Assembly: GCA_964016885.1 (NCBI GenBank) | Contig: OZ024742.1 | Span: 89,838,001-89,902,000, forward strand | Reading direction: 5' to 3' | Origin: Eledone cirrhosa | Lineage: Eukaryota | Length of the DNA stretch: 64,000 nucleotides | In this document: piece by piece, positions 5,446 to 63,926 of the stretch | Numbering within the stretch: the first letter of the stretch is position 1 | How the letters are laid out: every line of letters begins with the position of its first letter | Made by a program: the position numbers and the translations under genes | The notes under the pieces: generated by a model | Databases searched by the model: none | Told to the model about the DNA's origin: nothing | Seen by the model: the letters and a program-made list of their open reading frames with translations, nothing else

Positions 5446-5528
5446 CATCAAGTGTAAATGTGTATCAACTTTACTCATATAGTTGCCAAATTTAAACAAT
5501 ATTAATATTCGCTTTTTTATTATTTTAG

Positions 5529-6238
5529 GTTATGGTTACTGTGGTACCCAGGTGTATAACACTGCGACTCAAATTTGCTGTGAATCTCAGGTTTTATCCA
5601 AAAATGGATTGAAGAGGCCTGCTTGCTGTGGAAGTGTAGTATTTGATGGGGAAGATAAATTATGTTGCGCTGGTAGTTTAATAGATAAGGCAGCAGATAT
5701 GAATGCATGTTGTGGCAACGCGGGGATAGATGCATCTCTTACGGTCTGTTGTGGGGGGAACAATACAGTCAGGCTCACCCACATATGTTGTGGTGGGGTA
5801 GCAGTTGAAAGAAAAACTGTAGTTGATGGTTGTTGCGGGGCAGCTCTTATCAATACATACAAAGAACTTTGCTGTGGTGGGGTTAAAAAGGTGATCGCAA
5901 CCAGCTTTCCTGGAGGTTCTAATGTCATAGAAAACACATACGCTTGTTGTGGATCCAACATTTACAAAACAACTGTAAACGAATGTGTCGCTGGAAATAT
6001 CAGGCCAAAGCATGTCCATTATCCACATCCACCAATGCTACCACCCAGAATACCAATACCACCACCCCAACTACCAATACCGCATCCCCATCTACCAATA
6101 CCACATCCCCAACTACCAATACCACCACCCCAACTACCAATACCGCATCCCCATCTACCAATACCACATCCCCAACTACCAATACCACCACCCCAACTAC
6201 CACTATATCCATGGTGGACACGGCCGGGGTGGCAATAA
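5529..6238 (+). CDS. Terminal exon of a galaxin-like (double-Cys repeat) protein with a Pro/His-rich C-terminal tail; probably secreted
   Basis: Uninterrupted frame with nine CC dyads (ICCES, ACCGS, LCCAG, ACCGN, VCCGG, ICCGG, GCCGA, LCCGG, ACCGS); polypyrimidine tract and AG acceptor at 5527-5528 (phase 1); TAA stop followed by two AATAAA. Upstream exon(s) not identified. Confidence 0.85.
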
Positions 6239-24565: not shown

Positions 24566-26377
24566 TTATCTAAAATGTCTTGCACAGAGTCGGCAACCAA
24601 AACATTCACTGGGAATAGTCGGCTGTGGTTGGAGTTCTTGTACTCTTGCATGTCGCTTGAGCCCTCCTGCTGATTTACATTCTCTACCACATGTTTGGCA
24701 AGCATGATGAGTAGCATCTCCAACAGCAGCCTGGTAGTCAACCACTGGTCTTACTTTATGACTGCGAAGATGACTTTCGAGTCCAGCTTTGCTTAGGCAG
24801 AGTCTCGCACAGACGCTGCATGTCAAAACCATAGGAGGACCCTCGCCGTCTGGAAGTGCAACAGCAATGCCCTTCCTCACATCCCGCTTTACTTTCTCGT
24901 ATGCGATTCGAGATGTCTCAAAGGCAACTTTTCCCTCATATACAGTCTTTCTCCATTTATTACGATCAGCAGCAATATTTTCCCATGTATCAGCAGAGAT
25001 GTTAGCGTCTTTCAGAGAAGCTTTCAAGGAATCCTTATACCTCTTTTTTTGTTTATGTGGCGGTCGTTTTCCGTTAACTAACTCTCCATAAAAGAGTTGT
25101 TTTGGTATTCTAGAATCCTTCATCCTGGTAAGGTGACCACTCCAACGGAGTCGTTGCTTAAGCACAAGAGCTTCTATACTGTCACACATAGAGCTTTCCA
25201 AAATCTCGACATCACTGATGTGGTCCCTCCAGTGAACGCCATGGATCCGTCTGAGACACATCTGATGGAAACGCTCCAATTGCTTAAGGTGGTGTCGATA
25301 TGTGACACAGGTCTCGCAGGCATAAAGAAGACAAGAGAGCACACATGCCCTGTACACCTTTACCTTTGTCCTCCTGCATATGTCTCGCCGACTCCAGAGT
25401 CGCCTTTCTAGCTTTCCGAAAGCATCACTTGCTTTCCTAATCCTAAGTGAAATTTCACTGTCAAGGTTGCTGTATCGATTGACACTGCTTCCCAGGTAGA
25501 CAAACTGATCAACCATTCCAAGTCGTTTGCCATACACATAGATGTTTGGTTCAGTGTACTGCTTACCAGGGGCAGGTTGGTACATGACGACGGTTTTCTT
25601 GAGACTGACAGTCAATCCTAGGGCAGTGCAAGCGTCAGAAAATGCATTCAAAATGTGCTGCATATCACTCTCTGTGTGCGCTACAAGATCGCAATCATCT
25701 GCATACAAGAGGTCTCTTATGATTGATGTAAATACTTTTGTCTTCGCAGCAAAGCGCCTGATGTTAAATATGCTGCCTGAGGTTCGATATCGGATGTAAA
25801 CACCATGCTCGCAATTCCTGAATGCAATACAGAAAACCATTGCAAAGTATATGGCAAACAGGATCGGTGCTGGAATATCTCCCTGTTTCACTCCATTTTT
25901 TACTGAGATAGGCTTCGACATGTTACCTCCGACATTAACCCAAGCCTTCATGTCGTCATGGAAAGACCTAACTAAAGCAATGAACTTATCAGGGCAACCA
26001 AGTTTATGGAGAACCTTCCATAATGCATCTCTGTTAACAGTATCGAAAGCTTTTGTCAGATCGACAAAAACCTGATACAGATCCAAGCCTTGTTCCATGC
26101 ACTTCTCCTTGAGCTGTCTAGCTGAGAAGATCATATCAGTAGTGCCGCGTCCAGCACGAAAACCAGATTGACTTTCAGGAAGAACACAATCTGCAATGTG
26201 TGTCAGCAGACGGTCCAGAAGCACCCTACATAAAACTTTCCCTACGACAGAAAGTAATGATATACCTCTGTAGTTCCCACAATCATTCCTGTTACCCTTT
26301 CCCTTGTACAAGACCACCATTACTGCATCTCTCCAGTCCTCAGGTACAGATTCATTAGCCCATATCCTGCCAAACAA
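24566..26377 (-). pseudogene. RTE reverse transcriptase plus zinc-finger ORF segment (603 aa)
   Basis: Long ORF with all RT motifs and CSVC..HLRSH, CQTC..H fingers; separated from the APE segment by a stop near 26414. Confidence 0.9.
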
Positions 26378-26413
26378 AGAGTGAAGATGTTGCAGGAGTC
26401 TCTCACCACCATA

Positions 26414-27637
26414 TTATAGGAGCTCAGCATGTATGCCATCCATACCTGGAGATCTTCCACTGTTCAGCTTCGAAATAGCCACTGCAACCTCCACAAGCGT
26501 CAGAGGTTCTGCGAGAGCTACTTTCACAGGACTTTCTGGAATGAGATTGAGGAAATCTTCACTGACGACAGACGGCTGATTCAAAAGATCATCAAAGTGC
26601 TCTCGCCACCTTCGTAGAATTCCTTGTGAGTCACGAAGAAGTTCTTTGCCATCCTTGCTGCGAAGCGGTGTCACCAGAGAAGAAGACGGTCCATAAACCT
26701 CACGCAAGAGACTGTACAACAGCTTTATGTTATTGGAATCTGACGCAGTTTGTATCTCACCAGCCTTCTCACTCCACCACTGATCCTTCATCTGAGAAAG
26801 ACTCCGCCTAACACATGATTTTATATCCCTAAGTTCCTCATGCAACGTATTCCTCTCCTGTGGTTTTGCCGTCAAGTAGCGTGACAGAGCACGCCTCTTA
26901 TCAGCCAACAATTCTTCTATATGTACATCATTCTCATTAAACCAGTCCTGATGTTTTCTCTGCACCAATCCCAGAACACGCCTGCCTACATCATAAACCG
27001 ACTTTTTAAGGGTCGGCCAATCCTCACCAAGATCTGCAGCCTGCATCTCTTCTTCCAATGTCCTCTTCACATTTTTATCCTTAAGACGAACAGCATTCAA
27101 TCTTTTGGGCAGGGCAACACCAGGAGCCCGGATTTTACGTTTAGTGATTAGTTTCACTTTTGCGCGTACCAGGCGGTGGTCAGTCCAGTACTCAGCTCTA
27201 CGAAGAGCACGAACACACTGCACATCCTGTCTGTCACGCATCCTGACTAGGACGTAGTCCAAAAGATGCCATTCCTTAGATGCAGGATGCATCCATGTGG
27301 TCTTGAATTTGTTCTTTTGTTGGAACATGGTGTTGGTAACACACAGATCCAGCTCCTCACACATCTGCAGCAGGAGCATACCATTGTTGTTACACTTTCC
27401 CACCCCATGCCTTCCGATTACATTCCATGTGTTAAAATCCCTACCCACTCTAGCATTAAAGTCACCAAGCACGATGACTTTGTCTGCCTGAGGGATATTT
27501 CTTAAAACACATTTCAAGGCATGGTAAAAGGACACTTTTTCTTCATCGACAGAATTCATAGTTGGAGCGTACACACTCACCAGGGTAGCATATCTTCCTT
27601 TGTCCAGCGGAACTCTCATGGACATAAAGACGCTCAC
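26414..27637 (-). pseudogene. RTE APE endonuclease/linker ORF segment
   Basis: APE motifs and SPGMDGIHAELL; the N-terminal part continues with frameshifts to about 27930. Confidence 0.9.
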
Positions 27638-28617
27638 TAATCCCTACTGGGAATTCTTCTAATTTATTCACAAGTACAGTCTTAACAGCAAATCCTACCC
27701 CAGCTTCTCTTCTGGTTCCTTCATCTCTTCCTTTCCAGAAGAATGTATATTCTCCACAAAATTCTGTAAGATGACCATCCCCAGCTAACCTCGGCTCAGA
27801 TAAAGCCGCGATGTCAAGATCGTAACGTCGAAGCTACTTTGCAACAAGAGCAGTCCTTCGTTAAGGACGCTCCAAGGAATCCCTGTCAAGCAGCGTCCGT
27901 ACGTTCCAGCAGCCAAGACTAAATGCCTTGTTTGGCTCTATTACAATGGCATGATGACGAGCGGGCCCAGGATGTGATAACCTGGAGCCCCTGCCCTTAT
28001 TGCCAATTATCTCTTTTATATTGTTCTGGAACATCATTGAATTGGAAAAAAAAAAAATGTAATAATAATAGTAATAATAATAATAATAATAATAGTACAC
28101 TATTAATAGTTATTAATGCACTCGTGCAATGCCTGTGCGTGACGAATATTTTTAAAGTGAGGAAAGACTGTGCACTGAGCCAATCCCACTCTCTGAGCGA
28201 GAGTAGCTATAACCCGAAAAGAAGAAAAGAACAACATCATCGGTAACTACTGAGCCGCAGGTTTTATGTCGGAGTTAACCCAGTTTCCTGAGATGCCTTC
28301 TCCTAGAAGAATGCCCTGACAAGGGCATTCTCCTAGAAGAATGCTCTGACAAGGGCTAGTGGTTCTTCACTGCCAGTGGTTTAACTGCGCGATCGGGCAT
28401 CCAGCCCGATTATTTCTGTCCCCGCACAAAAAAATAGAAAAAAATAAAAATCACTTATTGACACTTATACGTACGACATACACACACGCGCATACATATG
28501 CGCGCACACACACGCATACATACGCGCGCACACAGCAACACTCATACATACAAACAAACACACACACGCTACTCACTTACACACACACACACATATATAT
28601 ATACATACATACATACA

Positions 28618-30879: not shown

Positions 30880-32520
30880 AAGTGTTTAGACGGGGTCGGT
30901 ATTTGTTAATAAAGTGAGATTCCTTGCTGATGCGCTGGGTGTGGGTGGCATTATCTTTAAATTTGTAGAGGGGAAAGATTCTAAAGTTGGGATGATTTTA
31001 GGCGGCACAGGTATCAATGTGTTCACTTAATGGTATTTTTCTGTATTCCCGTATTTTAATTTGGGATCTATGGACAGTCATGCGTTGGCGGAGGCTGTTT
31101 TTGGTCTGGCCTATGTATTGTTCTCAACAACCTGAGCAAGTTAATACATACATTAGATTTTCTGATGCGCATGTGAAATTGTGTTTTACTATAAAATGTT
31201 GTCCTTCTTTGAAATAGAATTCCGAACACTGTATTAGGTTGATGCGTATGCCACAGTTGGGTCTATCACATTTTCTTACTGTGGGTTTCGTTGTTGTAGC
31301 TGGCAGTACTTTGGCATGTGTTAGGATGTTTTTCATTGACTTAGATTGTCTTTTGCTCTTTATGATATCGTGTGTTCGAAGGATTTGGTTCAATCTATGG
31401 TCCTTTGTTAACACAGGGATGTTCTGGAGGATGGTGTCAAAGGCCTCAATGTTGAGGGGTTGTGTGTGGAGATGTATGGAACAACCAGCTTTTAGTTTCA
31501 GTCGATTTACTTTAGGGTGTCTAAGGTTCTGGGTACTGAGTTTTAGGGCACGTTGGATTCCATTGTCAATTAGTGATGCAGGGTAATCCCTACCTATGAG
31601 TGTGTCCTTTAATTCTTGTAGCCGTAAGTAATAGGTGTTTTTATTGGAGACTATAGTAGAGATTCTCTTGGCTAAGTTGTAGGGAATATTAATTTTAACG
31701 AGTCTAGGGTGGCAAGAGTTGAAAGGAAGATATTGCTTGGAGTCTGTGGGCTTGTAGTATAAGTCTATTTCTATATTTTGTTATGAATCTTAATGAGGAT
31801 GTCGAGGAAGGGCAGTTGTTGATGGCTGTATTCCATCGTAAAGTTAATATTCGTGTTGAGCCCATTTATAAGGGTGTGAAATTCTTTAAGTTTCTCGAAG
31901 TTTTCGTGCGACAGGATGAAGCAGTCATCTAGGTATCGCTTCCAGTTCTTTTCTATGTGTAAGTAGAGAGTGTTTCCAAATTTGTTTAGTACTTTAGTGT
32001 AGTGGGTGATTTCCAACTATCCCATGACTAGGTTGGCATAAGTGGGGGCTGTTTTCGTTCCCATGGCGGTCCCAGATTCCTGCCTGTAGGATTTGTTATT
32101 GAAAACGAAGTAATTGTTATCCAAGATAAATTTGAGTCCTTCTATCACGAATTCTTTTTTGATGCGTTGTTGGAGTTCGTTGTGGTAATTATCCTGCCAG
32201 AATTGGAAAGCTTATATTCCTAGGGTGTGGGGGATGTTGGAGTGTAGGTTGTCTACATCGAACGTCACTAGTAGGGTTTGTTCAGAAAGGGGCATAATAG
32301 GGAGGTGATTGAGCATATCTAGGTCGTCCCTTATATCGCTTTTGATGTGTTTGAGAAAAGGTTTGAGAAGGGCATCAATGAAGTTTCTAAGGCGGTGGGT
32401 TTCGCAAGCGGGGCCTGCTATTATAGGTCTTAATTTGAGATCATTGGGTGAGGGGACATTGATGAGTATGTCTGTGGCTTCCTTGCATGCCTTACTTATT
32501 AATATATGTATTAACTTGCT
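30880..32520 (-). mobile_element. Neptune-like Penelope element (RT plus GIY-YIG), disrupted; 3' non-coding region extends to about 29650
   Basis: RPIIAGP, TFDVDNL, GTAMGTKTAPTYANL, WKRYLDDCF, LPFLDI, YYKPTD..SCHP, FTCASENLMYVLTC..YIGQT. Confidence 0.9.
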
Positions 32521-35549: not shown

Positions 35550-37995
<2,446 letters not shown>

Positions 37996-39660: not shown

Positions 39661-39734
<74 letters not shown>

Positions 39735-39782
39735 ATGAAATGACATGAGGCTGGATTTGTGTAAATCCTTGAAAGGTTTATT

Positions 39783-39840
39783 ATACTATGATAATTTCAA
39801 TGACCGGGTTCCGTATGAATCCGGTGATATCATCAGGTAT
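39783..39840 (-). ncRNA. Hammerhead ribozyme motif (retrozyme terminal repeat)
   Basis: Reverse complement of the 44603 motif, with one stem III mismatch. Confidence 0.7.
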
Positions 39841-41885
39841 TCGAAATATAAAACGTGAATGTAATAGATGAAATCCATGGGGCTCAAAATCGAGGACCTG
39901 AGGGCGATCGCTATCCTGTACCTTCTACCTTGGCCGGTCGCCCTCGAATGACGTTGCTAAAGCTTACAGTGTGCTACTACCGGTCAGATAAAGGAAAACA
40001 GAAAGGGATGGGAACATAAGTTAGCGTTAATCTCATGCCACAAGACAAAAGAAAGAAAGAAAGGAGGGAGATAGAAGAAGGGGGAAGGAAGAAGAAGAGA
40101 AGCCAGGGTTAATGTCAGCTATAAGAAGAAAGACAGAAAGAAGAGTAGGAAAGGTCGGTATTACAGTTAGGCCAGAATTGTCGCGAAGAAATTGTTTTTT
40201 TATTCTACGGGACGCGTATCTAAACAACTACTAGCGGTCAGATATAGGCAAACAAAAAGGGGGAAGGAAGATAAGTCTGTGGGAGGAAGACAGAAAGAGG
40301 GGAGAAGAGAATGAAGAGAATGAAGAAGTAGAAAAGTAAGGGTTGGTGGCTACAAGAAGGAAGATAGAAAGCAAGAGGAAGAAAGGTCGATATTAATGTC
40401 AGACTACAGTCAGGCCAGGAGTGGCGCGAGAAAATTTTTACAGGGACCCGTATCTTAGCAGAGGTGAATATATTGGGGGTCAGTGTGTTATAATGTGTGA
40501 GCAGAATATTGGAACGTTACGGTTTTGTTTAGACTTATAGGATGAAGTTAAAAATTAATAATTAATATTTAATATTAAAGAAATTAGAAAATTTAAAGTT
40601 AAGCAGTTTAACATTTTAAGGTTGATATATCTAATAGTTCTGATTTGATCTGTAATTTAAAGGTACTATGTGGCGGTTAAAACACCGGCCGCGCTCCGGG
40701 CCCCCGGGGCGAATTAAACCACTCCGAGTAGTTTCATTTACCGAAAGAAGGGGAAATTTATTTTCCCAAGCACTCAAGGTAGGCCCATGCACCAGGGGGC
40801 TGGTCGCGCCGCCATTCAAACCCACCCAACAGTCCGACAGAAAGTTGGAACTTTAAAATATTGTTTAAATTTATAGGATGAAGTTGAAAAGATTTATAAT
40901 TAATATTTAATATTAAAGAAATTAGAAAATTTAAAGTTAAACAGTTTAACATGTTAAGGTTGATATATCTAATAGTTCTGATTTGATCTGTAATTTATAG
41001 GTACTATGTGGCGGTTAAAACACCGGCCGCGCTCCGTGCCCCGGGGGCGAATTAAGCCACTCCGAGTAGTTTCATTTACCGAAAGAAGGGGAAATTTATA
41101 TTTCCAAGCACTCCAGGTAGGCCCATGCGCCAGGGGGCTGGTTGCGCCGCCATCAAAACCCGCCCAGCAGTCCGACTGAAAGTTGGAACTCTAAAATCTT
41201 GCTTAAATTTATAGGATGAAGTTGAAAGAATTTAGAATAAGATTATAAAATTAAAGAGTAAGAAGATTGAGTATTGAACAAACAGAAAATTGAAAATTAA
41301 ACATTTAAAAAAACTTCTATGAGGTTTTGGGTTGCGGGGTTTAATTAAAGAGAGTCTTTTATGAAAAAACGCTAATTGTATTATGTAGATCTATAATTTA
41401 TCCTAGTGGGATGTAGAGTACGGGATATAGTCGTGTAATATTTATTTTTGTTCTCAGGGGGAGACATTCTAGTGTCGTGTGCTAATGGGTACAAGTGAGC
41501 AAAAGTCCCAATAGGAGGAGTAGAAATACATGGATACATAGAAGTGGAATACGTGGAAGAGCACATTGATAAAGCAAAGGTATAAATATATAAACATATC
41601 AATATATAGATATAAATATGTAAATAAAGCAATAAGAGTGGTGTTGGAGTAAGATGGAGAAATCAAGACATAGGAGAAGTACAATATAGTTCAGGTTGCA
41701 GTATTTACCACTTGACAGAGCTGGTCTATTCCGTATTGTCAATCGTAATGTAATAATATAGAGAGTACTCAACGTAAAGCAATTCAACCGTCTTTGTTTT
41801 TGTAGTTGGTGGTGCTATTACGGAGTTAAATATTATAATGAAATGACAGGAGGCTGGATTTGTGTAAATCCTTCAAAGGTTTATT

Positions 41886-41943
41886 ATACTATGATCCTTT
41901 CAATGACCGGATTCCGTATGAATCCGGTGATATCATCAGGTAT
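41886..41943 (-). ncRNA. Hammerhead ribozyme motif (retrozyme terminal repeat)
   Basis: Minus strand: atac-CTGATGA-tatcaccggattc atacg gaatccggtcatt-GAAA-ggatca-TA-gtat. Confidence 0.7.
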
Positions 41944-42269
41944 TGGAAATATAATACGTGAATGTAATAGATAAAATCCATGGGCTGAAAATCGAGGACC
42001 CGAGGGCGATCGCTATCCTGTACCTTCTACCTTAGCCGGTCGCCCTCGAGTGAAGTGGCCAAAGCTTACAGTGTGCTACTACCAGTCAGATAAAGGAAAA
42101 CAGAAAGGGATGGGAACATAACATGACCGGTAGTAGCACACTGTAAGCTTTGGCCACGTCACTCGAGGGCGACCGGCTAAGGTAGAAGGTACATGATAGC
42201 GATCGGCCTCGGGTCCTCGATTTTCAGCCCCATGGATTTCATCTATTACATTCACGTATTATATTTCGA

Positions 42270-42327
42270 ATACCTGATGATATCACCGGATTCATACGGA
42301 ACCCGGTCATTGAAATGATTATAGTAT
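42270..42327 (+). ncRNA. Hammerhead ribozyme motif (retrozyme terminal repeat)
   Basis: atac-CTGATGA-tatcaccgg..ccggtcatt-GAAA-tgatta-TA-gtat. Confidence 0.75.
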
Positions 42328-43019
42328 AATAAACCTTTCAAGGATTTACACAAATCCAGCCTCCTGTCATTTCATTATAATATTTAACTCCGTAATAGCA
42401 CCACCAACTACAAAAACAAAGACGGTTGAACTGCTTTACGTTGAGTACTCTCTATATTATTACATTACGATTGACAATACGGAATAGACCAGCTCTGTCA
42501 AGTGAAACTGCAAACTGAACTATATTGTACTTCTCCTATGTCTTGATTTCTCCAACTTACTCCAACACCACTCTTATTGCTTTATTTACATATTTATATC
42601 TATATATTGATATGTTTATATATTTATACCTTTGCTTTATCAATGTGCTCTTCCACGTATTCCACTTCTATGTATCCATGTATTTCTACTCCTCCTATTG
42701 GGACTTTTGCTCACTTGTACCCATTAGCACACGACACTAGAATGTCTCCCCCTGAGAACAAAAATAAATATTACACGACTATATCTCGTACTCTACATCC
42801 CACTAGGATAAATTATAGATCTACATAATACAATTAGCGTTTTTTCATAAAAGACTCTCTTTAATTAAACCCCGCAACCCAAAACCTCATAGAAGTTTTT
42901 TTAAATGTTTAATTTTCATTTTTCTGTTTGTTCAATTCTCAATCTTCTTACTCTTTAATTTTATAATGTTATTCTGAATTCTTTCAACTTCATCCTATAA
43001 ATTTAAGTAATATTTTAGA

Positions 43020-43790
43020 GTTCCAACTTTCTGTCGGACTGCTGGGTGGGTTTTGATGGCGGCGCAACCAGTCCCTGGCGCATGGGCCTACCTGGATTGC
43101 TTGGAAAAATAAATTTCCCCTTGTTTCGGTAAATGAAACTACCCGGAGTGGCTTAATTCGACCCGGGGGCCCGGAGCGCGGCCGGTGTTTTAACCGCCAC
43201 ATTGTACCTTTAAATTACAGATCAAATCAGAACTATTAGATATATCAACCTTAAAATGTTAAACTTTCTGTCGGACTGCTGGGTGGGTTTTGATGGCGGC
43301 GCAACCAGTCCCTGGCGCATGGGCCTACCTGGATTGCTTGGAAAAATAAATTTCCCCTTGTTTCGGTAAATGAAACTACCCGGAGTGGCTTAATTCGACC
43401 CGGGGGCCCGGAGCGCGGCCGGTGTTTTAACCGCCACATTGTACCTTTAAATTACAGATCAAATCAGAACTATTAGATATATCAACCTTAAAATGTTAAA
43501 CTGTTTAACTTTAAATTTTCTAATTTCTTTAATATTAAATATTAATTATTAATTTTTTCTACTTCATCCTATAAATTTAAACAATATTTTAAAGTTCCAA
43601 CTTTCTGTCGGACTGTTGGGTGGGTTTAATGGCGGCGCGATCAGCCCCCTGACGCATGGGCCTACCTTGAGTGCTTGGAAAAATAAATTTCCCCTTCTTT
43701 CGGTAAATGAAACTACTCGGAGTGGTTTAATTCGCCCGGGGGGCCCGGAGCGGCCGGTGTCTTAACCGCCACATAGTACCTTTAAATTAC
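43020..43790 (+). repeat. Three tandem GC-rich modules of about 190 nt (two in the mirror arm, 40660-41190)
   Basis: Units start at about 43025, 43263 and 43598; core gcttggaaaaataaatttccccttstttcggtaaatgaaactac. Confidence 0.9.
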
Positions 43791-44602
43791 AGATCAAATC
43801 AGAACTATTAGATATATCAACCTTAAAATGTTAAACACTGTTTAACTTTAAATTTTCTAATTTCTTTAATATTAAATATTAATTATTAATTTTTTCAACC
43901 TCATCCTATAAGTCTAAACAAAAACGTAACGTTCCAATATTCTGATCACACATTATAACACACTGACCCCCAATATATTCACCTCTGCTAAGATACGGGT
44001 CCCTGTGAAAATTTTCTCGCGCCACTCCTTGCCTGACTGTAGTCTGACATTAATATTGACCTTTCTTCCTCTTTCTTTCTATCTTCCTTCTTGTAGCCAC
44101 GAAACCTTACTTTTCTACTTCTTCATTCTCTTCCTTCTCTCCTCCCCTCTTTCTGTCTTCCTCCCGCAGACTTATCTTCCTTCCCCCTTTTTGTTTGCCT
44201 ATATCTGACCGGTAGTAGTTGTTTAGATACGGGTCCCGTAGAATAAAAAAAAAATTTCTTCGCGACAATCCTGGCCTGACTGTAATACCGACCTTTCCTC
44301 CTCTTTCTTTCTGTCTTTCTTCTTATAGCTGACTTTAACCCTGGCTTCTCTTCTTCTTCCTTCCCCCTTCTTCTCTCTCCCTCCTTTCTTTCTTTTGTCT
44401 TGTGGCATGAGATTAACGCTAACTTATGTTCCCATCCCTTTCTGTTTTCCTCTATCTGACCGGTAGTAGCACACTGTAAGCTTTAGCCACATCACTCGAG
44501 GGCGACCGGATAAGGTAGAAGGTAGAGGATAGCGATCGCCCTCGGGTGCTCGATTTTCAGCCCCATGGATTTTATCTATTACATTCACGTATTATATTTC
44601 GA

Positions 44603-44660
44603 ATACCTGATGATATCACCGGATTCATACGGAACCCGGTCATTGAAATGATCATAGTAT
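44603..44660 (+). ncRNA. Hammerhead ribozyme motif (retrozyme terminal repeat)
   Basis: atac-CTGATGA-tatcaccgg attc atacg gaac ccggtcatt-GAAA-tgatca-TA-gtat; palindromic stem III; U-U at the base of stem II. Confidence 0.8.
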
Positions 44661-45970
44661 AATAAACCTTTCAAGGATTTACACAAATCCAGCCTCCTGT
44701 CATTTCATTATAATATTTGCTCCGTAATAGCACCACCAACTACAAAAACAAAAACGGTTGAACTGCTTTACGTTGAGTACTCTCCATATTATTACATTAC
44801 GATTGACCATACGGAATAGACCAGCTCTATCAAGTGGTGAACCTCAAACCTGAATATATATATATATATTATTCAATTTAGGAAAGTTTGTTGATCATTT
44901 AATCCGCTGACGTTTTTTGTAAACGGACATAAAGCACTCTATAAAATATCATTTTCGTTTATTCTAACTTTATTTGATTTTGTTTTTTTTATTTTCTAAT
45001 TTAATTTAATTGTTTGATAATATAGTTAATATTACAATTGATGTAGAGAATATAAAACACATACAAATGCTCAGATAGATGAGAACCGAACTCACCGAAA
45101 CTGGAAACTAAAGGAACTAGAATTTATGCTCAGTGCATGGAATTGAGCTAATGGCTCCCTTTCAAACAAGCTAATTAAGGATGCCCTACAAAGATGTGGC
45201 TTTCTGAGAACTTGGGCACAGCTACAACTGAAAAAGAACGAATTTATTCGTGCCTACTCGCTTGTTCTGCTACACGTGGATCAGTTGAGCCACATTTGGT
45301 CAGAGGACACAAAAGAAGAAGGGGAAGAAGTCGAAAACTAAGAAAAACAAAGTTCCTGGGAAAAAGAAGGCCCAGGTTCTCTGTGAATTCCACAAGAAAG
45401 TGACCTGTTAGCATAGGGCGTCTGGGACAAACTGCGGGTTTGCAAGTCGCACCCATCCTGCTTATGCCAACTACCCAAGCCAAAACCAACATGTGCAAAC
45501 AATACAGTGCACAGGGTCACTGTCCAGGATGTATGCTGAGGTTGTACGCACTCCCCTGATGACGAGAAGGAAGTATACAGAAGCAGTACAGAGTTTTAAC
45601 TGGATAAAAGGACTTTTTTTTTAATAACGGAAAATATAGTGAGACAGATGACTTAGCTTCGTCAACTACAAAGCCAAATTCAGTCACATCAACACTCGCG
45701 ACCACCACAAATAAAAGAGCTGGTGTGGCCGCTTCTGATACCCACGCAAGTGCCATATAAGCAGCCACCACTGATCCCTAAAATGTCACACTAGTGCTAC
45801 TAGTAAATGATCTTCTAACTGACACTCAGTATGGCTTTCGTCCGGGTAGAAATTGTATATGTTGGGAAGGTGATGTTTCAAATGAACACACACGCCGCTG
45901 TTGTTTTCACTTCAATTTATTACAAATTACCGGGTGGTTGGTTCAATAACCCGATGGTTGTTTATTTATC

Positions 45971-57382: not shown

Positions 57383-60300
57383 TCTATATATATATAAATC
57401 TGAGGATGTGTGTGAAAAGGTTTGTAACGGATTCACGTCCACAACTTCCGACGGATTCTATTCAAAGTCAGGACAATTATTGCTTTTGGTCAGGAAAAGG
57501 TCATGAAGCAAAAGGAAATTCAAATCCATCAACAATAAGGGCAAAAATCGATCATGATCATTCCCCCTCGCTATAATTTAACTGTTTTACTCTCTCTGTC
57601 GCTCTTCACTCCCTAAATGACAACACTGCAGAGAGAGAAACAATATGTATGATCAAATGGAGCGTTTCGTATATTCCCTCTCTCTATAATTTAACTGCTT
57701 TACTCTCTCTGTCGCTCTTTACTCCCTATATGACAACACTGCGGTGGAGCATTCCGTATTGAGCGTTCCGTATTGACATACGGCTTATATGGTGCATTAT
57801 ATAAATCGAAATGTAACCCATGAACTTTTTCCTGGGCAAAATTATTCGAACAGACATGACCTCATTGCCAGAGTGTTCAGACTGAAACTGGCTAAACTCA
57901 TTGCTTTTATCAAAAAGGGTCAGGTACTTGGGGCTGTAAAATGTGACATGTTCACCGTCGAATGGCAAAAACGAGGGCTTCCGCATGCTTACATTTTGAT
58001 TTGGTTAGCTGATAAAATCAAAACAAATACCATAGACAGCTGAAATCCCTAACCCAGCAACTGACCAGGAATTACATAATATCAGCAAAGCTAACATGGT
58101 CCGTGTGCCTCGGGTCCTACTGAGCATCACACGTGTCTGAAAGAGGGGTCGTGCAGTAAAGGATACCCCAAAAAATGTGTTGACCAGACTCAAACTGGTG
58201 GCGACGGGTACCCCCTGTACAGGCCCGAGACGGCCCGTGAACGGTGGCTTCACCACAACAGTAAAGGCAGGTCAAGTCGACAATAGATAGGTGGTCCCTT
58301 ACTGCCCGCTTCTCTTGAAGATGTTCAATGCCCACATCAACGTTGAGACTTGCAACTCCGTCAAGTCGATAAAATACATATGCAAATATGTAAATAAGGG
58401 CTCTGATGCCGCAATGTTCGCATTTCAAGCTGAAAATAGCAGGGATGAGATTACAGAATACCTGGCGGGGCGGTACATCAGTAGCAATGAAGCTTTTTGG
58501 CGCCTATTTGGTTTACCCCTACACCAATGTCACCCCGCCATCGTACAGCTTGCGGTACATTTGGAAAATGGGCAAAGGGTTTACTTTACGGACCAAACCG
58601 CCGCCAAGTTGGCCGCCGACCGAAAGAGACCATTCTGATGGGTTTCTTCAAACTTTGCCAGTTCGATGCATTTGCGCAAACAATTGTGTACCCCCAGGTT
58701 CTCTCCTACTTTATATGGCCGAAAAACACTTGAGTGCGAAGAAAGTCAGGTCAGGCTGTTGAAAGACATCCTGGTGTAAAATTTGACATCTGTCTTGGAA
58801 GGGTTTACACTGTGTCCCCAAGTCAGCATGAGTGCTTTCATCTCCGCCTTCTTGTGCATGAAATTGTAGGCCCACAAAGTTTTCAGGACCTCAAAACTGT
58901 TGATGAAGAAATATGTGATACGTACCGGGAAGCCTGCTTTAAACGTGGTCTCTTGGAAGGTGATTCGCAATGGGATTCCACTTTAGCATAGGGTGCTTTG
59001 TTGAAATCAACTAAAAGTCTACGAGAACTCTTTGCCATTTTGCTTCAAAAGTGTGAATTGGGTGATCCTATATCTTTCTGGGTCAAGTACAGAGACTTGA
59101 TGTCTGAGGACTTCCTGCGCCTGGCTCATCTGCAGTATCCTTCAGTGGAAGTTGGTTGCAGCGACATTATCTACAACAGGGCACTCATTGATATCGAGGA
59201 CGCCCTCCTCGACATTGTAGGGAACGAATTGGCGACGTATGGTTTGCTGTCAACCATCAGAGAGGACGCTAACACGTTGGCCCCGGATTTGTTGCGAGAA
59301 ACAGCATATGACATCGATTCTCTTTCCCAATACTTAGAGGAAAATGAGCCTAAACTTGTGACGGACCAAAGGTTGGCTTATTTAACTATCATTGACGCGG
59401 TTCAAAATGAGACTGGGGGTATTTACTATCTCGATGCTCCTGGGGGTAATGGAAAAATCTTGGGAACAAAATTGATTCTCGCTAAGATTCGTCAGGAGAA
59501 AAAAATTGCGTTGGCCGTTGCATCGTCCTGGATCGCTTCTACTTTGCTGCCGGGAGGCAGGACAGCACACTCAACCTTAAACTCCCCTTGGATTTAGTAA
59601 AAACTGAGACACCAACATACAATATCAGCAAGAGTTCACACGAAGCTCTGGTTCTCAAAAAATGTTACCTCATTGTTTGGGATGAGTGCACAATGGCACA
59701 CAAGGGTTCGCTTGAGGCATTGGACAGGACTCTGAAAGACATTAGGGATTCTACGGCTCCTATGGGTGGCGTAACCCTTCTGCTATCAGTGGATTTTCGG
59801 CAAACGCTGCCTGTCATCCCCAAAGGGACAAGAACTGATGAAGTGCGTGACTGCCTTAAGTTGTCCATGTTTGGCCCCAGGTGAAGAGTTTGTAGCTGAG
59901 CACAAATGTGAGTGCTCATTTGCATGGGGACAACATGTCTGCAGCATTTTCTAACATTTTAACATTTGGTGTGGGCAATGTCCCTGCGGATGACAAGGGC
60001 GGCATAGCAATCGACTCTCTGTGCAACATTGTGAGCATCCCTTCTGACCTTTGGGAAGCAGTTTTTCCTAATGTCTTTAATAACTTTAAAAAATTCGATT
60101 GGCTCAGCGAAAGAGCCATCCTTGCTCCGAAAAATCCCATGGTTAATTTTATTAACGAGCAGCTGATTAAGAAGATTCCCGGTAAAGAGCACATCTTCAA
60201 ATCTATCGACCTGACGTCAGACCCCGACGATATCGTTAATTATCCGGTTGAGTTATTAAATTCCCTTGAACCCCCAGAGCTCCCACCTCACATTCTTAAG

Positions 60301-61025
60301 CTTAGGGTTGGTTGTCCCATTATGCTAATAAAGAACATGCGTCCACCAAAGCAGTGCAACGGTACTCGCATGGTCGTCAAGTCACTGACGCCCCAATTGG
60401 TTGAGGCCACCATCGTAACGGGGTGCGAGAGAGGGCAGAATGTTCTCATTCCAATGATGAACCTTTTCCCCTCGGCGTCAGATATCGCGTTCTATTTCCG
60501 GCGAATCCAATTCCCGGTGAGACCATGTTTTGCCAAGACACAAGGGCAAACATTGTCGGTGGCGGGCATCCATTTGGGAGTACCATGCTTCGCCCATGGC
60601 CAAATTTATGTTGCCTGTTCCCGCGTAGGGAGCAGGAATGGACATTTTGCTTACACTCCTCAAGGTATGACACCCAATATCGTCTACAAATAGGTGCTAT
60701 AGATGTTGATGCAGGTGTTGGAGGTGTTGGAGCAATGCCGTCTAGAAAACTATTTCCTGGTAGGGTCACGCTTGGCGGACAGATCTGACACCCAGCGGTA
60801 TCAGGGCCACCATCTTGCAACTTTGGTCTGCTAAATTCGGTATTGGAAGATTATTAACCCATCATTGATTGTCCAAAATGCTAATTGGTTCGTAACTTTT
60901 AATAACCGGTTCAACTGCTTTATGTACTTAATTTATAAGCTTATTTGCTTTCAAGCCACGTTTACCTGTATGTAACTTTTCATAGAAAATGAACAAACCT
61001 GAACAACGCCGGGCTAAACTGCTAC
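57383..61025 (+). mobile_element. Decayed, internally deleted Helitron (Rep HUH nuclease plus Pif1-like helicase)
   Basis: 5' TC; VEWQKRGLPHAYILIWL, HINVE..SIKYICKYVNKGSD, DAPGGNGK, WDECTM, KTQGQTL, HGQIYVACSRV; 3' cctgaacaacgccggg..CTAC; many stops and frameshifts. Confidence 0.95.
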
Positions 61026-61881: not shown

Positions 61882-61938
<57 letters not shown>

Positions 61939-61982
61939 AATGACAGGAGGCTGGGCTGGTGTAATTCCTTAAAAGGTTTATT

Positions 61983-62040
61983 ATACTATGATCATTTCAA
62001 TGACCGGTTTCAGTACGAATCCGGTGATATCATCAGGTAA
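61983..62040 (-). ncRNA. Hammerhead ribozyme motif
   Basis: Minus strand: tac-CTGATGA-tatcaccgg..ccggtcatt-GAAA-tgatca-TA-gta. Confidence 0.75.
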
Positions 62041-63635
62041 TCGAAATATAACAAAGGAATATAATAGACAAAATCCATGGGGCTGAAAATATTTTCAGGG
62101 CTTTTGGGATTCACTTTGGATATTCAGACTCGAACATACACTAGGTATCACCTGATACCATTCCTACTCTTCCATCCTGTATATCTATATGTATAACATT
62201 GCATTCTCCAACCGTGCTATATATTGCCCATTTACTGCACCTTGATCTGTATTTTATTTCTTCTGTATTGTGATTTCTTCTATGTTCTTATATACTTCCT
62301 TTTTACTCCCTACATCACCACCCTAGGTATGACTGTATTTTGTATTTTACTTATGGTATTACTTATGCATTTATTTACTCCCTTTACTCTCATTATATAC
62401 GTATCCTTGTACTCATTAGCACACGACCCTATAATATTGCTCTCTGTACCCTTATATCTGTCTATCTTTATTTACTCCCCCTACCCACCCAGGTATCATA
62501 CTACATATAACCGGACTAACTATAGTCTATTTGCACATTTCATCAGATTTTATCACTTTCAACTTCACATCACGGGTGTGAATAACTAATAATCGTTTGG
62601 TACACGCGATGATCCGACTGATGTGGCGGCTTTTCCGACAGCACACCAGTCGCTTGGGTCGATCAGCCTTCCTTGAGTGCTTGGAAAAATAAATTTCCCC
62701 TTCTTTCGGTAAACGAAAATACTCGGAACGGCTGCTTCGCCCTGGGGCCCTGTCGGACTTGGAACCCGCCTCGACACCGGTTATTGACTGCCAAACAGTA
62801 CCTTTAAATTCTAGGCTTAATCATAACTTTTAATTTTATCTGGCCTCCTTCTACTAGCACTTAACTAAATCCCCCACCAGTGTGAATCACTAGTAGTCGT
62901 TTGTTATATACGATGTCCGGCGGACGGTGGCGGACTTCCCGCTGGCACACCCGACGCTTAAGACAGTTAACATTCCTGGGGTGCGCGGAAAAATAAATGT
63001 CCATTTCTTTCGCTATACAATAATACTCGGAACGGCTAACACGCCGTTGGGCCCCGGGCTGGTCGGGGGTACGCTACGTCGCTAAGCATGGGTTTAATCT
63101 TTACTCTGTATTTTACCCTGAAACTTTATCGTGACTATCTATAATACACTTAAACTTTTTCATAACAGCCTCCTTCTGTAAATTCTTTAACTAAATCTCA
63201 CAACTTCAAACTTAAACCTTATTTTTCTAATTTCATCTTAAATGTCATCTTCTAACTCTAAACATAAATTTAACGTTTCTAATTGTTAATCGAAATTTCT
63301 GTCCATACATTATACCATGCAGACGCCCACTATATATTACTAAATATAGTATTGTTAAGATATATGTTCTTTGATAAAATATTTTTCGCGGCACTTCTAG
63401 CACGCATGACCAGCTTGATTGTGACCTGACTTCAACGCTGGCCTCTGTCTTTGAAGGGATAGTAGTATTACACTATAAACCTACGCCCCTTCACAAAATA
63501 GTCATATGTAGGCTTAATAATGACCACATGAGGGCGGCCGACTGGGGTAGAAGGTGATAAATGTTCGGTCGCCTTCATGTCCCTGATTTTCAGCCTCATG
63601 GATTTTGTCTATTATATTCCTCTGTTATATTTCGA

Positions 63636-63693
63636 TTAGCTGATGATGTCACCGGATTTATTCTGAACCCGGTCATTGAAATGATAATAGTAT
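63636..63693 (+). ncRNA. Hammerhead ribozyme motif (weakened stem I)
   Basis: CTGATGA-tgtcaccgg..ccggtcatt-GAAA-tgataa-TA-gtat. Confidence 0.6.
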
Positions 63694-63880
63694 AATAAAC
63701 CTTTTAATGAATTACACAAGTCCAGCCTCTGTAATTTTATAATAATTAACTCCGTACTCGCAACACCAACTACACAAACGAAGACGGGTGAGTTACATTA
63801 CGTTGAGTGCTCTCCATAATATTACATCGAGGTTGACGATACGGAATGACCAGTTCTATCCAGTGGTGAACCAACAAACC

Positions 63881-63926
<46 letters not shown>

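Follow-up and report, generated by a model that had tools for sequence, protein, structure and literature searches.

The GC-rich module that recurs in the window, that is, in the whole 64-kb stretch of Eledone cirrhosa DNA analysed here, belongs to the interior of a non-autonomous Penelope-like element (PLE) of the retrozyme type, and constraint acts on its 53-nt core in the lineages that transpose. The module is real and constrained, and it is probably structured. As to its role, our leading but still tentative reading, to which we give nearly an even chance, is that the core may serve as a cis-acting, structured RNA domain of the element RNA on which a protein docks.

A protein-less Penelope-like element and its modules

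The modules of the first element are flanked by two direct repeats of about 400 nt, each with a hammerhead: an upstream pseudo-LTR (pLTR; 42124-42525, +), which includes the hammerhead motif CTGATGA (42274) and some of the tail, and a downstream pLTR (44457-44859, +), to which the former is 94% identical and which has a minimal type I hammerhead with palindromic stem III (CTGATGA at 44607) and, reaching up to (TA)n, a tail of about 145 nt. At both sites the hammerhead can be read from the sequence as CTGATGA, stem II, GAAA, palindromic TGATCA, TA and a 4-bp stem I, and the hammerheads of the element escaped detection by Rfam. An inverted copy of the same element (39727-42121, -; 95% identity over 1,463 nt; hammerheads at 41939 and 39836) adjoins the upstream pLTR, and a second element of subfamily B (62100-63890, +), in which both paralogues of the module and a hammerhead (63640) are present, stands beside a short inverted pLTR (61927-62090). 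The element has no protein-coding capacity, its longest stop-free frame being 119 codons, and no tblastn match to it was obtained from 117 ORFs of PLE-bearing loci. An autonomous partner sharing the pLTR or the module was not found among 50 of more than 10,000 GIY-YIG candidate loci, and at one examined locus the pLTR was a separate nested insertion.

Exact searches of the 3.0-Gb genome returned 5,039 hammerheads and 1,251 cores, with no match for either reversed control. For the 157 cores with 1,300 nt of downstream sequence, the next hammerhead lay on the same strand in 124, on the opposite strand in none, and was missing in 33, the module being located 500-1,200 nt upstream of the hammerhead. 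The initial annotation had presented the module as cargo, a description that gives way to that of a fixed component of the body of the element, invariably on the strand of the hammerhead. Inverted 5'-truncated copies of the element occur, and the 3' ends of insertions, mapped for 29 hammerheads picked by their own pattern, fell at (TA)n 95-115 nt downstream of the hammerhead in 14 and 242-273 nt downstream in 13, and at neither distance in 2. The available text of PMC8557442 and PMC11167929 gives pLTRs, inverted truncated neighbours, a tail and microsatellite targets as the signature of PLEs, and hammerheads with palindromic stem III are described in the part of PMC4209133 at hand as acting as dimers. 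Given its pLTRs, inverted truncated neighbours, tail, (TA)n ends and lack of an ORF, we assign the element to the non-autonomous PLEs of the retrozyme kind.

As far as the accessible text of PMC7229834 and bioRxiv 10.64898/2026.07.22.740005 goes, non-LTR retrozymes and non-autonomous PLEs resemble the present element in having no ORF, a type I hammerhead in each repeat, a partial tandem arrangement, thousands of copies and pLTR-type ends. Unlike the retrozymes described in these portions of the two sources, the element has a unit of about 2.0-2.3 kb (versus 170-400 nt in PMC7229834 and at most 972 nt in bioRxiv 10.64898/2026.07.22.740005), a minimal PLE-type hammerhead, a PLE tail, inverted truncations and a duplicated, constrained internal module. 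With canonical EN+ PLEs (Penelope/Poseidon, Neptune), as they appear in the sections available of PMC4209133, PMC11167929 and PMC8557442, it shares the pLTR, the hammerhead with palindromic stem III, the inverted 5'-truncated copy beside the upstream pLTR, the two 3' ends that define the tail and the insertion at microsatellites, whereas it differs from them in lacking an RT/GIY-YIG ORF and in the length of its tail, about 145 nt compared with 30-40 nt.

A profile built from the copies recovered exactly seven modules in the window at E<=10, the number that had been claimed, and none further. Copy 1 (43035-43215, +), copy 2 (43272-43452, +) and copy 3 (43609-43787, +) lie in the first element, and copies 1 and 3 belong to paralogue 1 of subfamily A. 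Alignment shows copy 2 to be the product of a single, exact 237-bp tandem duplication of copy 1 (100% identity), so that these two are not independent. Two copies lie in the inverted element (40655-40836 and 40993-41174, both -), and the second element has a paralogue 1 of subfamily B (62615-62809, +; core at 62675-62727) and, 304 nt downstream, a paralogue 2 (62919-63077, +), an older duplicate with a decayed 3' end. The GC content of the module is 0.55, versus 0.38 for the whole window. The five A-type copies are 92-100% identical to each other, 72-73% identical to the 62.6-kb copy and 53-56% identical to the 62.9-kb copy.

Several further features of the element and of its surroundings were recorded. 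A hairpin of 13-15 bp upstream of the hammerhead in the downstream pLTR (44493-44547, +), also found at 42165-42220, has a z of -2.44, is kept across subfamilies and, among the 14 pairs of its stack, shows one double change, from C-G to U-A; its structural support exceeds that of the stems in the module. Upstream of the pLTR (44040-44460), YAG-terminated pyrimidine tracts resemble splice acceptors in subfamily A and are weak or absent in B. Three sets of contigs from one sample contained no GT-AG joint, an observation that has no bearing on expression. A word resembling TTTTCGCGGC, which we take to be similar to an E2F site, occurs at 44010-44025, 44254-44266 and 63383-63393, about 250-590 nt upstream of the hammerhead, and is common to several subfamilies. 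Elsewhere in the window there are hammerhead-like motifs of other families (3809, 5080, 15657, 46009, 47102, 47680 and 48211), PLE ORF fragments (706-1643, 31124-31780 and 36578-37132; GIY-YIG, E 0.00095), an exon of a galaxin-like repeat protein (5483-6238, +; PF24748, E 5e-22), fragments of a Pif1-type helicase that are probably those of a Helitron (58992-60693, +; PF21530) and a stretch presumed from its motifs to be an RTE-like LINE (24566-27643, -). On contig C3, the stretch from 89.3 to 90.35 Mb contains further near-identical copies of window elements, which suggests a locally duplicated gene cluster.

Constraint on the 53-nt core

In the genome, 293 module copies fall into nine subfamilies of at least four members, with 22 left over. 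Most subfamilies have two old paralogues about 280-300 nt apart with flanks 56-60% identical, while subfamily A of the window has no paralogue 2 and carries paralogue 1 one to three times; the tandem period of the module is 304-338 nt. Each paralogue retains its own diagnostic core bases in every subfamily, and the two have thus not been homogenised.

The measure of constraint compared changes on internal branches, which are inherited via active elements, with private changes that follow insertion, in 196 copies left from 236 after removal of near-identical ones, about half of them located by the core pattern. The 53-nt core, at 43669-43721 (+) in copy 3, had 32 subfamily-level and 219 private changes (0.15), compared with 334 and 958 in the GC-rich flanks (0.35; p=3e-6); the AT-rich 3' part of the module had 69 and 185. 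When the test was repeated on 59 modules from 30 of 89 loci, located by flank motifs or by their neighbourhood, the ratio was 23/78 in the core versus 183/266 in the flanks (p=6e-4). The internal and private changes numbered 11 and 186 for the hammerhead and 93 and 427 for the pLTR upstream of it; the constraint on the core is weaker than that on the ribozyme and stronger than that on the element body. The earlier impression of a core that stays conserved as its flanks diverge is thus borne out, also in the flank-located copies. A decayed coding origin of the module, with the 117 ORFs of PLE-bearing loci yielding no protein-level match, is ruled against.

A function need not follow from this pattern. 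The module might be functionless, its core preserved by low local mutation, by exchange between subfamilies or by ascertainment, and the pairing of its flanks, discussed below, a relic of an old fold-back. The lack of significant covariation, the z near 0 in subfamily A, the many insertions that are cut off short of the module (about 1,251 cores versus 5,039 hammerheads) and the location of about half of the copies by the core pattern would all agree with such a view. However, the ratio test corrects for the local mutation rate and holds in flank-located copies, in every subfamily the two paralogues still differ in their diagnostic core bases, and a relic would pair equally well across paralogues, and we regard an absence of function as rather unlikely.

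Predicted fold of the core and competing readings

The core is predicted to form a three-way junction, in which GAGTG/TACTC closes two hairpins, GGAAA/TTTCC and TTTCG/TGAAA. In the 62.6-kb core, the junction is both the MFE and the centroid fold (z -3.34), and in copy 3 it is the MFE fold, but there the z of the core is only -0.21, and the whole copy does not outdo its shuffles on either strand (z -0.34 and -0.87). The junction that the initial annotation had drawn for the copies is thus reproduced as the MFE fold of 43655-43730 and 62660-62740, but its outer helix is broken by two substitutions in copies 1 and 2, which read GATTG/TACCC instead of GAGTG/TACTC (core of copy 1 at 43095-43147, +). 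In the 62.9-kb copy, the 3' strand of the closing helix is gone and both hairpins have mismatches. As to the closing helix tggcgg..ccgcca, TGGCGG in subfamily A aligns to a different position from, and is not homologous to, that in B, and the helix has a pair probability above 0.5 in just 5 of 34 copies.

Support for an RNA fold comes from the distribution of changes and from the flanks. With the helices of the initial annotation fixed beforehand and changes counted by column, 7 of the 30 columns in helices carried subfamily changes, compared with 14 of the 23 outside them (p=0.010), a concentration in loops that was matched by 2 of 105 shifted masks. Beneath the junction, the flanks can be drawn by eye into a long irregular stem of 48 pairs in paralogue 2 (87.6% of cells paired) and of 37 pairs in paralogue 1 (89.2% paired), in a register that differs between the paralogues. 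The 5' and 3' flanks paired better within than across paralogues in all 56 of 56 non-independent comparisons, by a mean of -10.2 kcal/mol, which 2-3% of neutral simulations reached (p≈0.02-0.03). However, this contrast amounts to about one deep split: the advantage of cognate flanks is absent within paralogue 1 (p=0.21), and it is found within paralogue 2 (p=0.019). Over shuffles, flank pairing in 15 subfamilies was -13.6 versus -8.5 kcal/mol in favour of the hammerhead strand, energies inflated by the mixing of GC-rich and AT-rich parts. Double-sided changes in the flank stems were single ones, a C-G to U-A in 9 of 26 rows and another in 2 of 25 rows. In addition, in the subfamily of L152:679-875, about 20 nt of the 3' flank are lost and changes on the 5' side restore, as judged by eye, a 10-pair stem under the junction.

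Covariation does not add to this support. None of the 18 core pairs had a double-sided change in 34 copies, and one stem-3 pair was broken in 13 of them. For the named stems, neither double-sided changes nor the covariation score exceeded column shuffles, tree-based double changes were not above a parallel-stack control (12 vs 9 and 11 vs 12), and RNAalifold returned other, mutually inconsistent folds. The pLTR as positive control was likewise without excess (15 vs 13), and the power of the test is low since this control was missed too; the core stems hardly vary. Several subfamily changes yield A-C rather than G-U pairs, and private branches carry no excess of A>G, and hence no editing (ADAR) footprint of a duplex. 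According to the initial annotation, a functional RNA would be contradicted by a lack of significant covariation together with conservation no higher than that of the rest of the element; covariation was indeed not significant, but core conservation was clearly above that of the rest of the body. The proposed functional RNA domain thus retains a constrained core and a modestly supported fold, through loop-biased changes and flank pairing, but not covariation. On these predictions the RNA fold leads over a reading at the level of DNA without being established.

That DNA-level reading holds the core to be a promoter or enhancer made of a cluster of short dyad sites, with the helices a mere by-product of palindromic protein sites. 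It would account for an invariant sequence without covariation, for the near-fixed spacing, for the tandem multiplication and for the position 500-1,200 nt upstream of the hammerhead, and there are precedents in the promoter of Penelope itself, placed in the pLTR region in the available text of PMC2377424, and in the internal promoters of newt and schistosome hammerhead satellites, as reported in the part of PMC2220036 at hand. However, the distal element of host snRNA promoters was unmatched (best median 5.3 bits vs 15.7-24.3 for 11 host sites), neither the host proximal element nor host 5S was matched, copies continue across the module as far as the upstream pLTR, their 5' ends not accumulating at the module edge, and the paralogue-specific pairing of the flanks is left unexplained. 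In addition, two adjacent hairpins inside a closing dyad seem more in keeping with a nucleic acid in single-stranded form than with a site in duplex DNA. The module may act as a Pol II enhancer, and we consider the promoter or enhancer reading as a whole unlikely but of appreciable weight.

The snRNA comparison used matrices from 11 distal and 8 proximal host sites of U1, U2 and U6 genes, and an internal promoter of the snRNA type, as in newt satellite 2, was rejected when these distal and proximal elements found no match. The host promoters themselves (L302-L307, L272, L274, L314 and L287-L289; 250-290 nt upstream of U1, U2 and U6) have a distal motif, TTACCTCCCTTGA, near -260, joined in U1 and U2 by AATCAGT near -57 and in U6 by a ATGCAAAT-like motif at -77 plus TATA. 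Other origins were tried and rejected in turn. Derivation from 5S, as in SINE3 and Cassandra, gave profile scores of 14.1 and 13.5 against null means of 13.6 and 13.4, with no significant pairwise match on the plus strand, and a minus-strand hit (0 of 500 shuffles) rests on a 10-mer confined to subfamily A. For an SRP RNA or Alu-domain origin, 89 of 200 and 47 of 200 shuffles scored as high on the sense strand against the 5' domain of host SRP RNA. The 3' flank of paralogue 1 resembled positions 125-170 of U2 (3 of 300 and 1 of 300 shuffles), a signal that is lost after the roughly 20 tests of which it is one, and paralogue 2 had no significant match to host U2. Paralogy between the core and the tail of the pLTR, which have a 9-mer in common, reached 13 of 200 shuffles at best over 8 tests, and a V/Meta SINE domain was rejected, the motifs of the window being absent from the searched supplements of PMC4758252 and PMC4824008, with only short colinear words in common with the V-domain by eye. 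In agreement with the initial annotation, which could name no family, Rfam 15 (known ribozymes, SECIS, IRES and snRNA) gave nothing at gathering score and nothing on the module at E<=10. Searches of other organisms gave no hit in viral contigs and one unrelated hit in metagenome contigs. A literature search, mostly among papers outside subscription, returned none on the module, for which a Repbase or Dfam consensus entry may exist.

Two of the RNA functions suggested at the outset fare worse. Were the module a so far unrecognised ribozyme whose self-cleavage divides the transcript into units of about 300 nt, the lack of an Rfam match and the invariance of some unpaired bases would be understandable. 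However, its variability sits in junction and loop bases, which in catalytic cores are not the variable ones, no fixed 5' breakpoint is seen (236 of 251 profile hits start at least 61 nt upstream of the core hairpin and 7 near -30), and there are no long module arrays outside the element. Even with a tandem period of 304-338 nt that recalls the 170-400 nt of retrozyme monomers, as given in the available text of PMC7229834, we hold self-cleavage by the module to be very improbable. Lower still in our estimate, with hardly any probability left to it, is the suggestion of a regulated poly(A) signal displayed by the hairpin. A looped AATAAA is indeed present in 203 of 293 copies, but a poly(A) site is disfavoured because the hexamer is replaced by a fixed AATTAA, AATTGA or AATCGA in 4 of 9 subfamilies, and in addition 302 of 304 cores continue past the 3' end of the core, one has an A tract nearby, and insertions end at the tail and not at the hexamer.

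A possible docking site in a borrowed transposition pathway

Under the preferred reading of the core as a docking site for a protein, transcription through tandem units would yield an RNA that carries the module on the hammerhead strand. A borrowed PLE protein might then prime at two positions in the tail and copy through hammerhead and module, with reverse transcription often stopping early or switching strand, as the mapped ends suggest. The core junction, placed atop the long irregular stem, is predicted to bind a protein, which would stabilise a non-coding and possibly cut or circular RNA and hand it to the RT, and lineages with an intact core would transpose more often.

A non-autonomous element also retains what its RT needs, and the core, a predicted three-way junction, which we presume to resemble CR4/5 of telomerase RNA, could instead be the binding site of the partner's RT and a counterpart of the telomerase RNA junction. 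PLE and telomerase RTs share their most recent ancestor, according to the accessible part of PMC8557442. However, in PAc, the one PLE studied in vitro in the available text of PMC11167929, the protein-binding region and both start sites lie in the region of hammerhead and tail. Both 3' ends of the present element map to that same region, and the module is therefore probably not the primary RT signal; it was also absent from the 50 GIY-YIG loci examined. We thus judge an RT-binding site improbable and, as the RT-binding region of the studied PLE comprises hammerhead and tail, favour, by analogy, a host RNA-binding factor for stability or trafficking as the docking partner of the core over the RT itself.

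A more far-reaching proposal would see in the core a new class of RNA, a three-way junction that loads or activates the telomerase-related RT of PLEs, or cleaves itself, and that a protein-less parasite has retained and multiplied, with self-complementary loops (AUUAAU, AUUGAU and AUCGAU) allowing RNA dimers; we speculate on it as a long shot. The loops of paralogue 2 (for example in L152:679-875, L079:948-1144 and L191:1766-1962) read AUAAAU, AUUAAU, AUUGAU and AUCGAU, of which all but the first are self-complementary and have a G-U step between them, like a dimerisation loop. The series comprises only three changes, and it is plausible that it arose by chance.

The docking reading has a functional analogue in Alu SINEs, which are likewise non-autonomous and are built of monomers in tandem that each bear a small junction atop a long stem (the Alu domain of SRP RNA), and in which SRP9/14 has a role in stability or trafficking. 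The likeness of the Alu domain to the module is functional only, with no sequence relation to host SRP RNA. Cassandra, Helenus, SINE3 and the SINEs with V or Meta domains similarly keep a conserved non-coding block in a non-autonomous element; the module differs from this group in that it is not derived from 5S and is mobilised as a PLE.

Non-autonomous elements are natural deletion scans, in that the parts they retain reveal what transposition needs. The cis-elements of PLEs in the cited literature are the hammerhead, the tail, the promoter in the pLTR and the SECIS of Naiad, and to these is now added another sequence under constraint, which lies at a distance of 500-1,200 nt from the hammerhead and occurs as two old paralogues and in nine subfamilies. 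Its core might thus provide a short, testable cis-element, together with a set of natural variants, for how a protein-less hammerhead RNA is made, protected and delivered to a telomerase-like RT.
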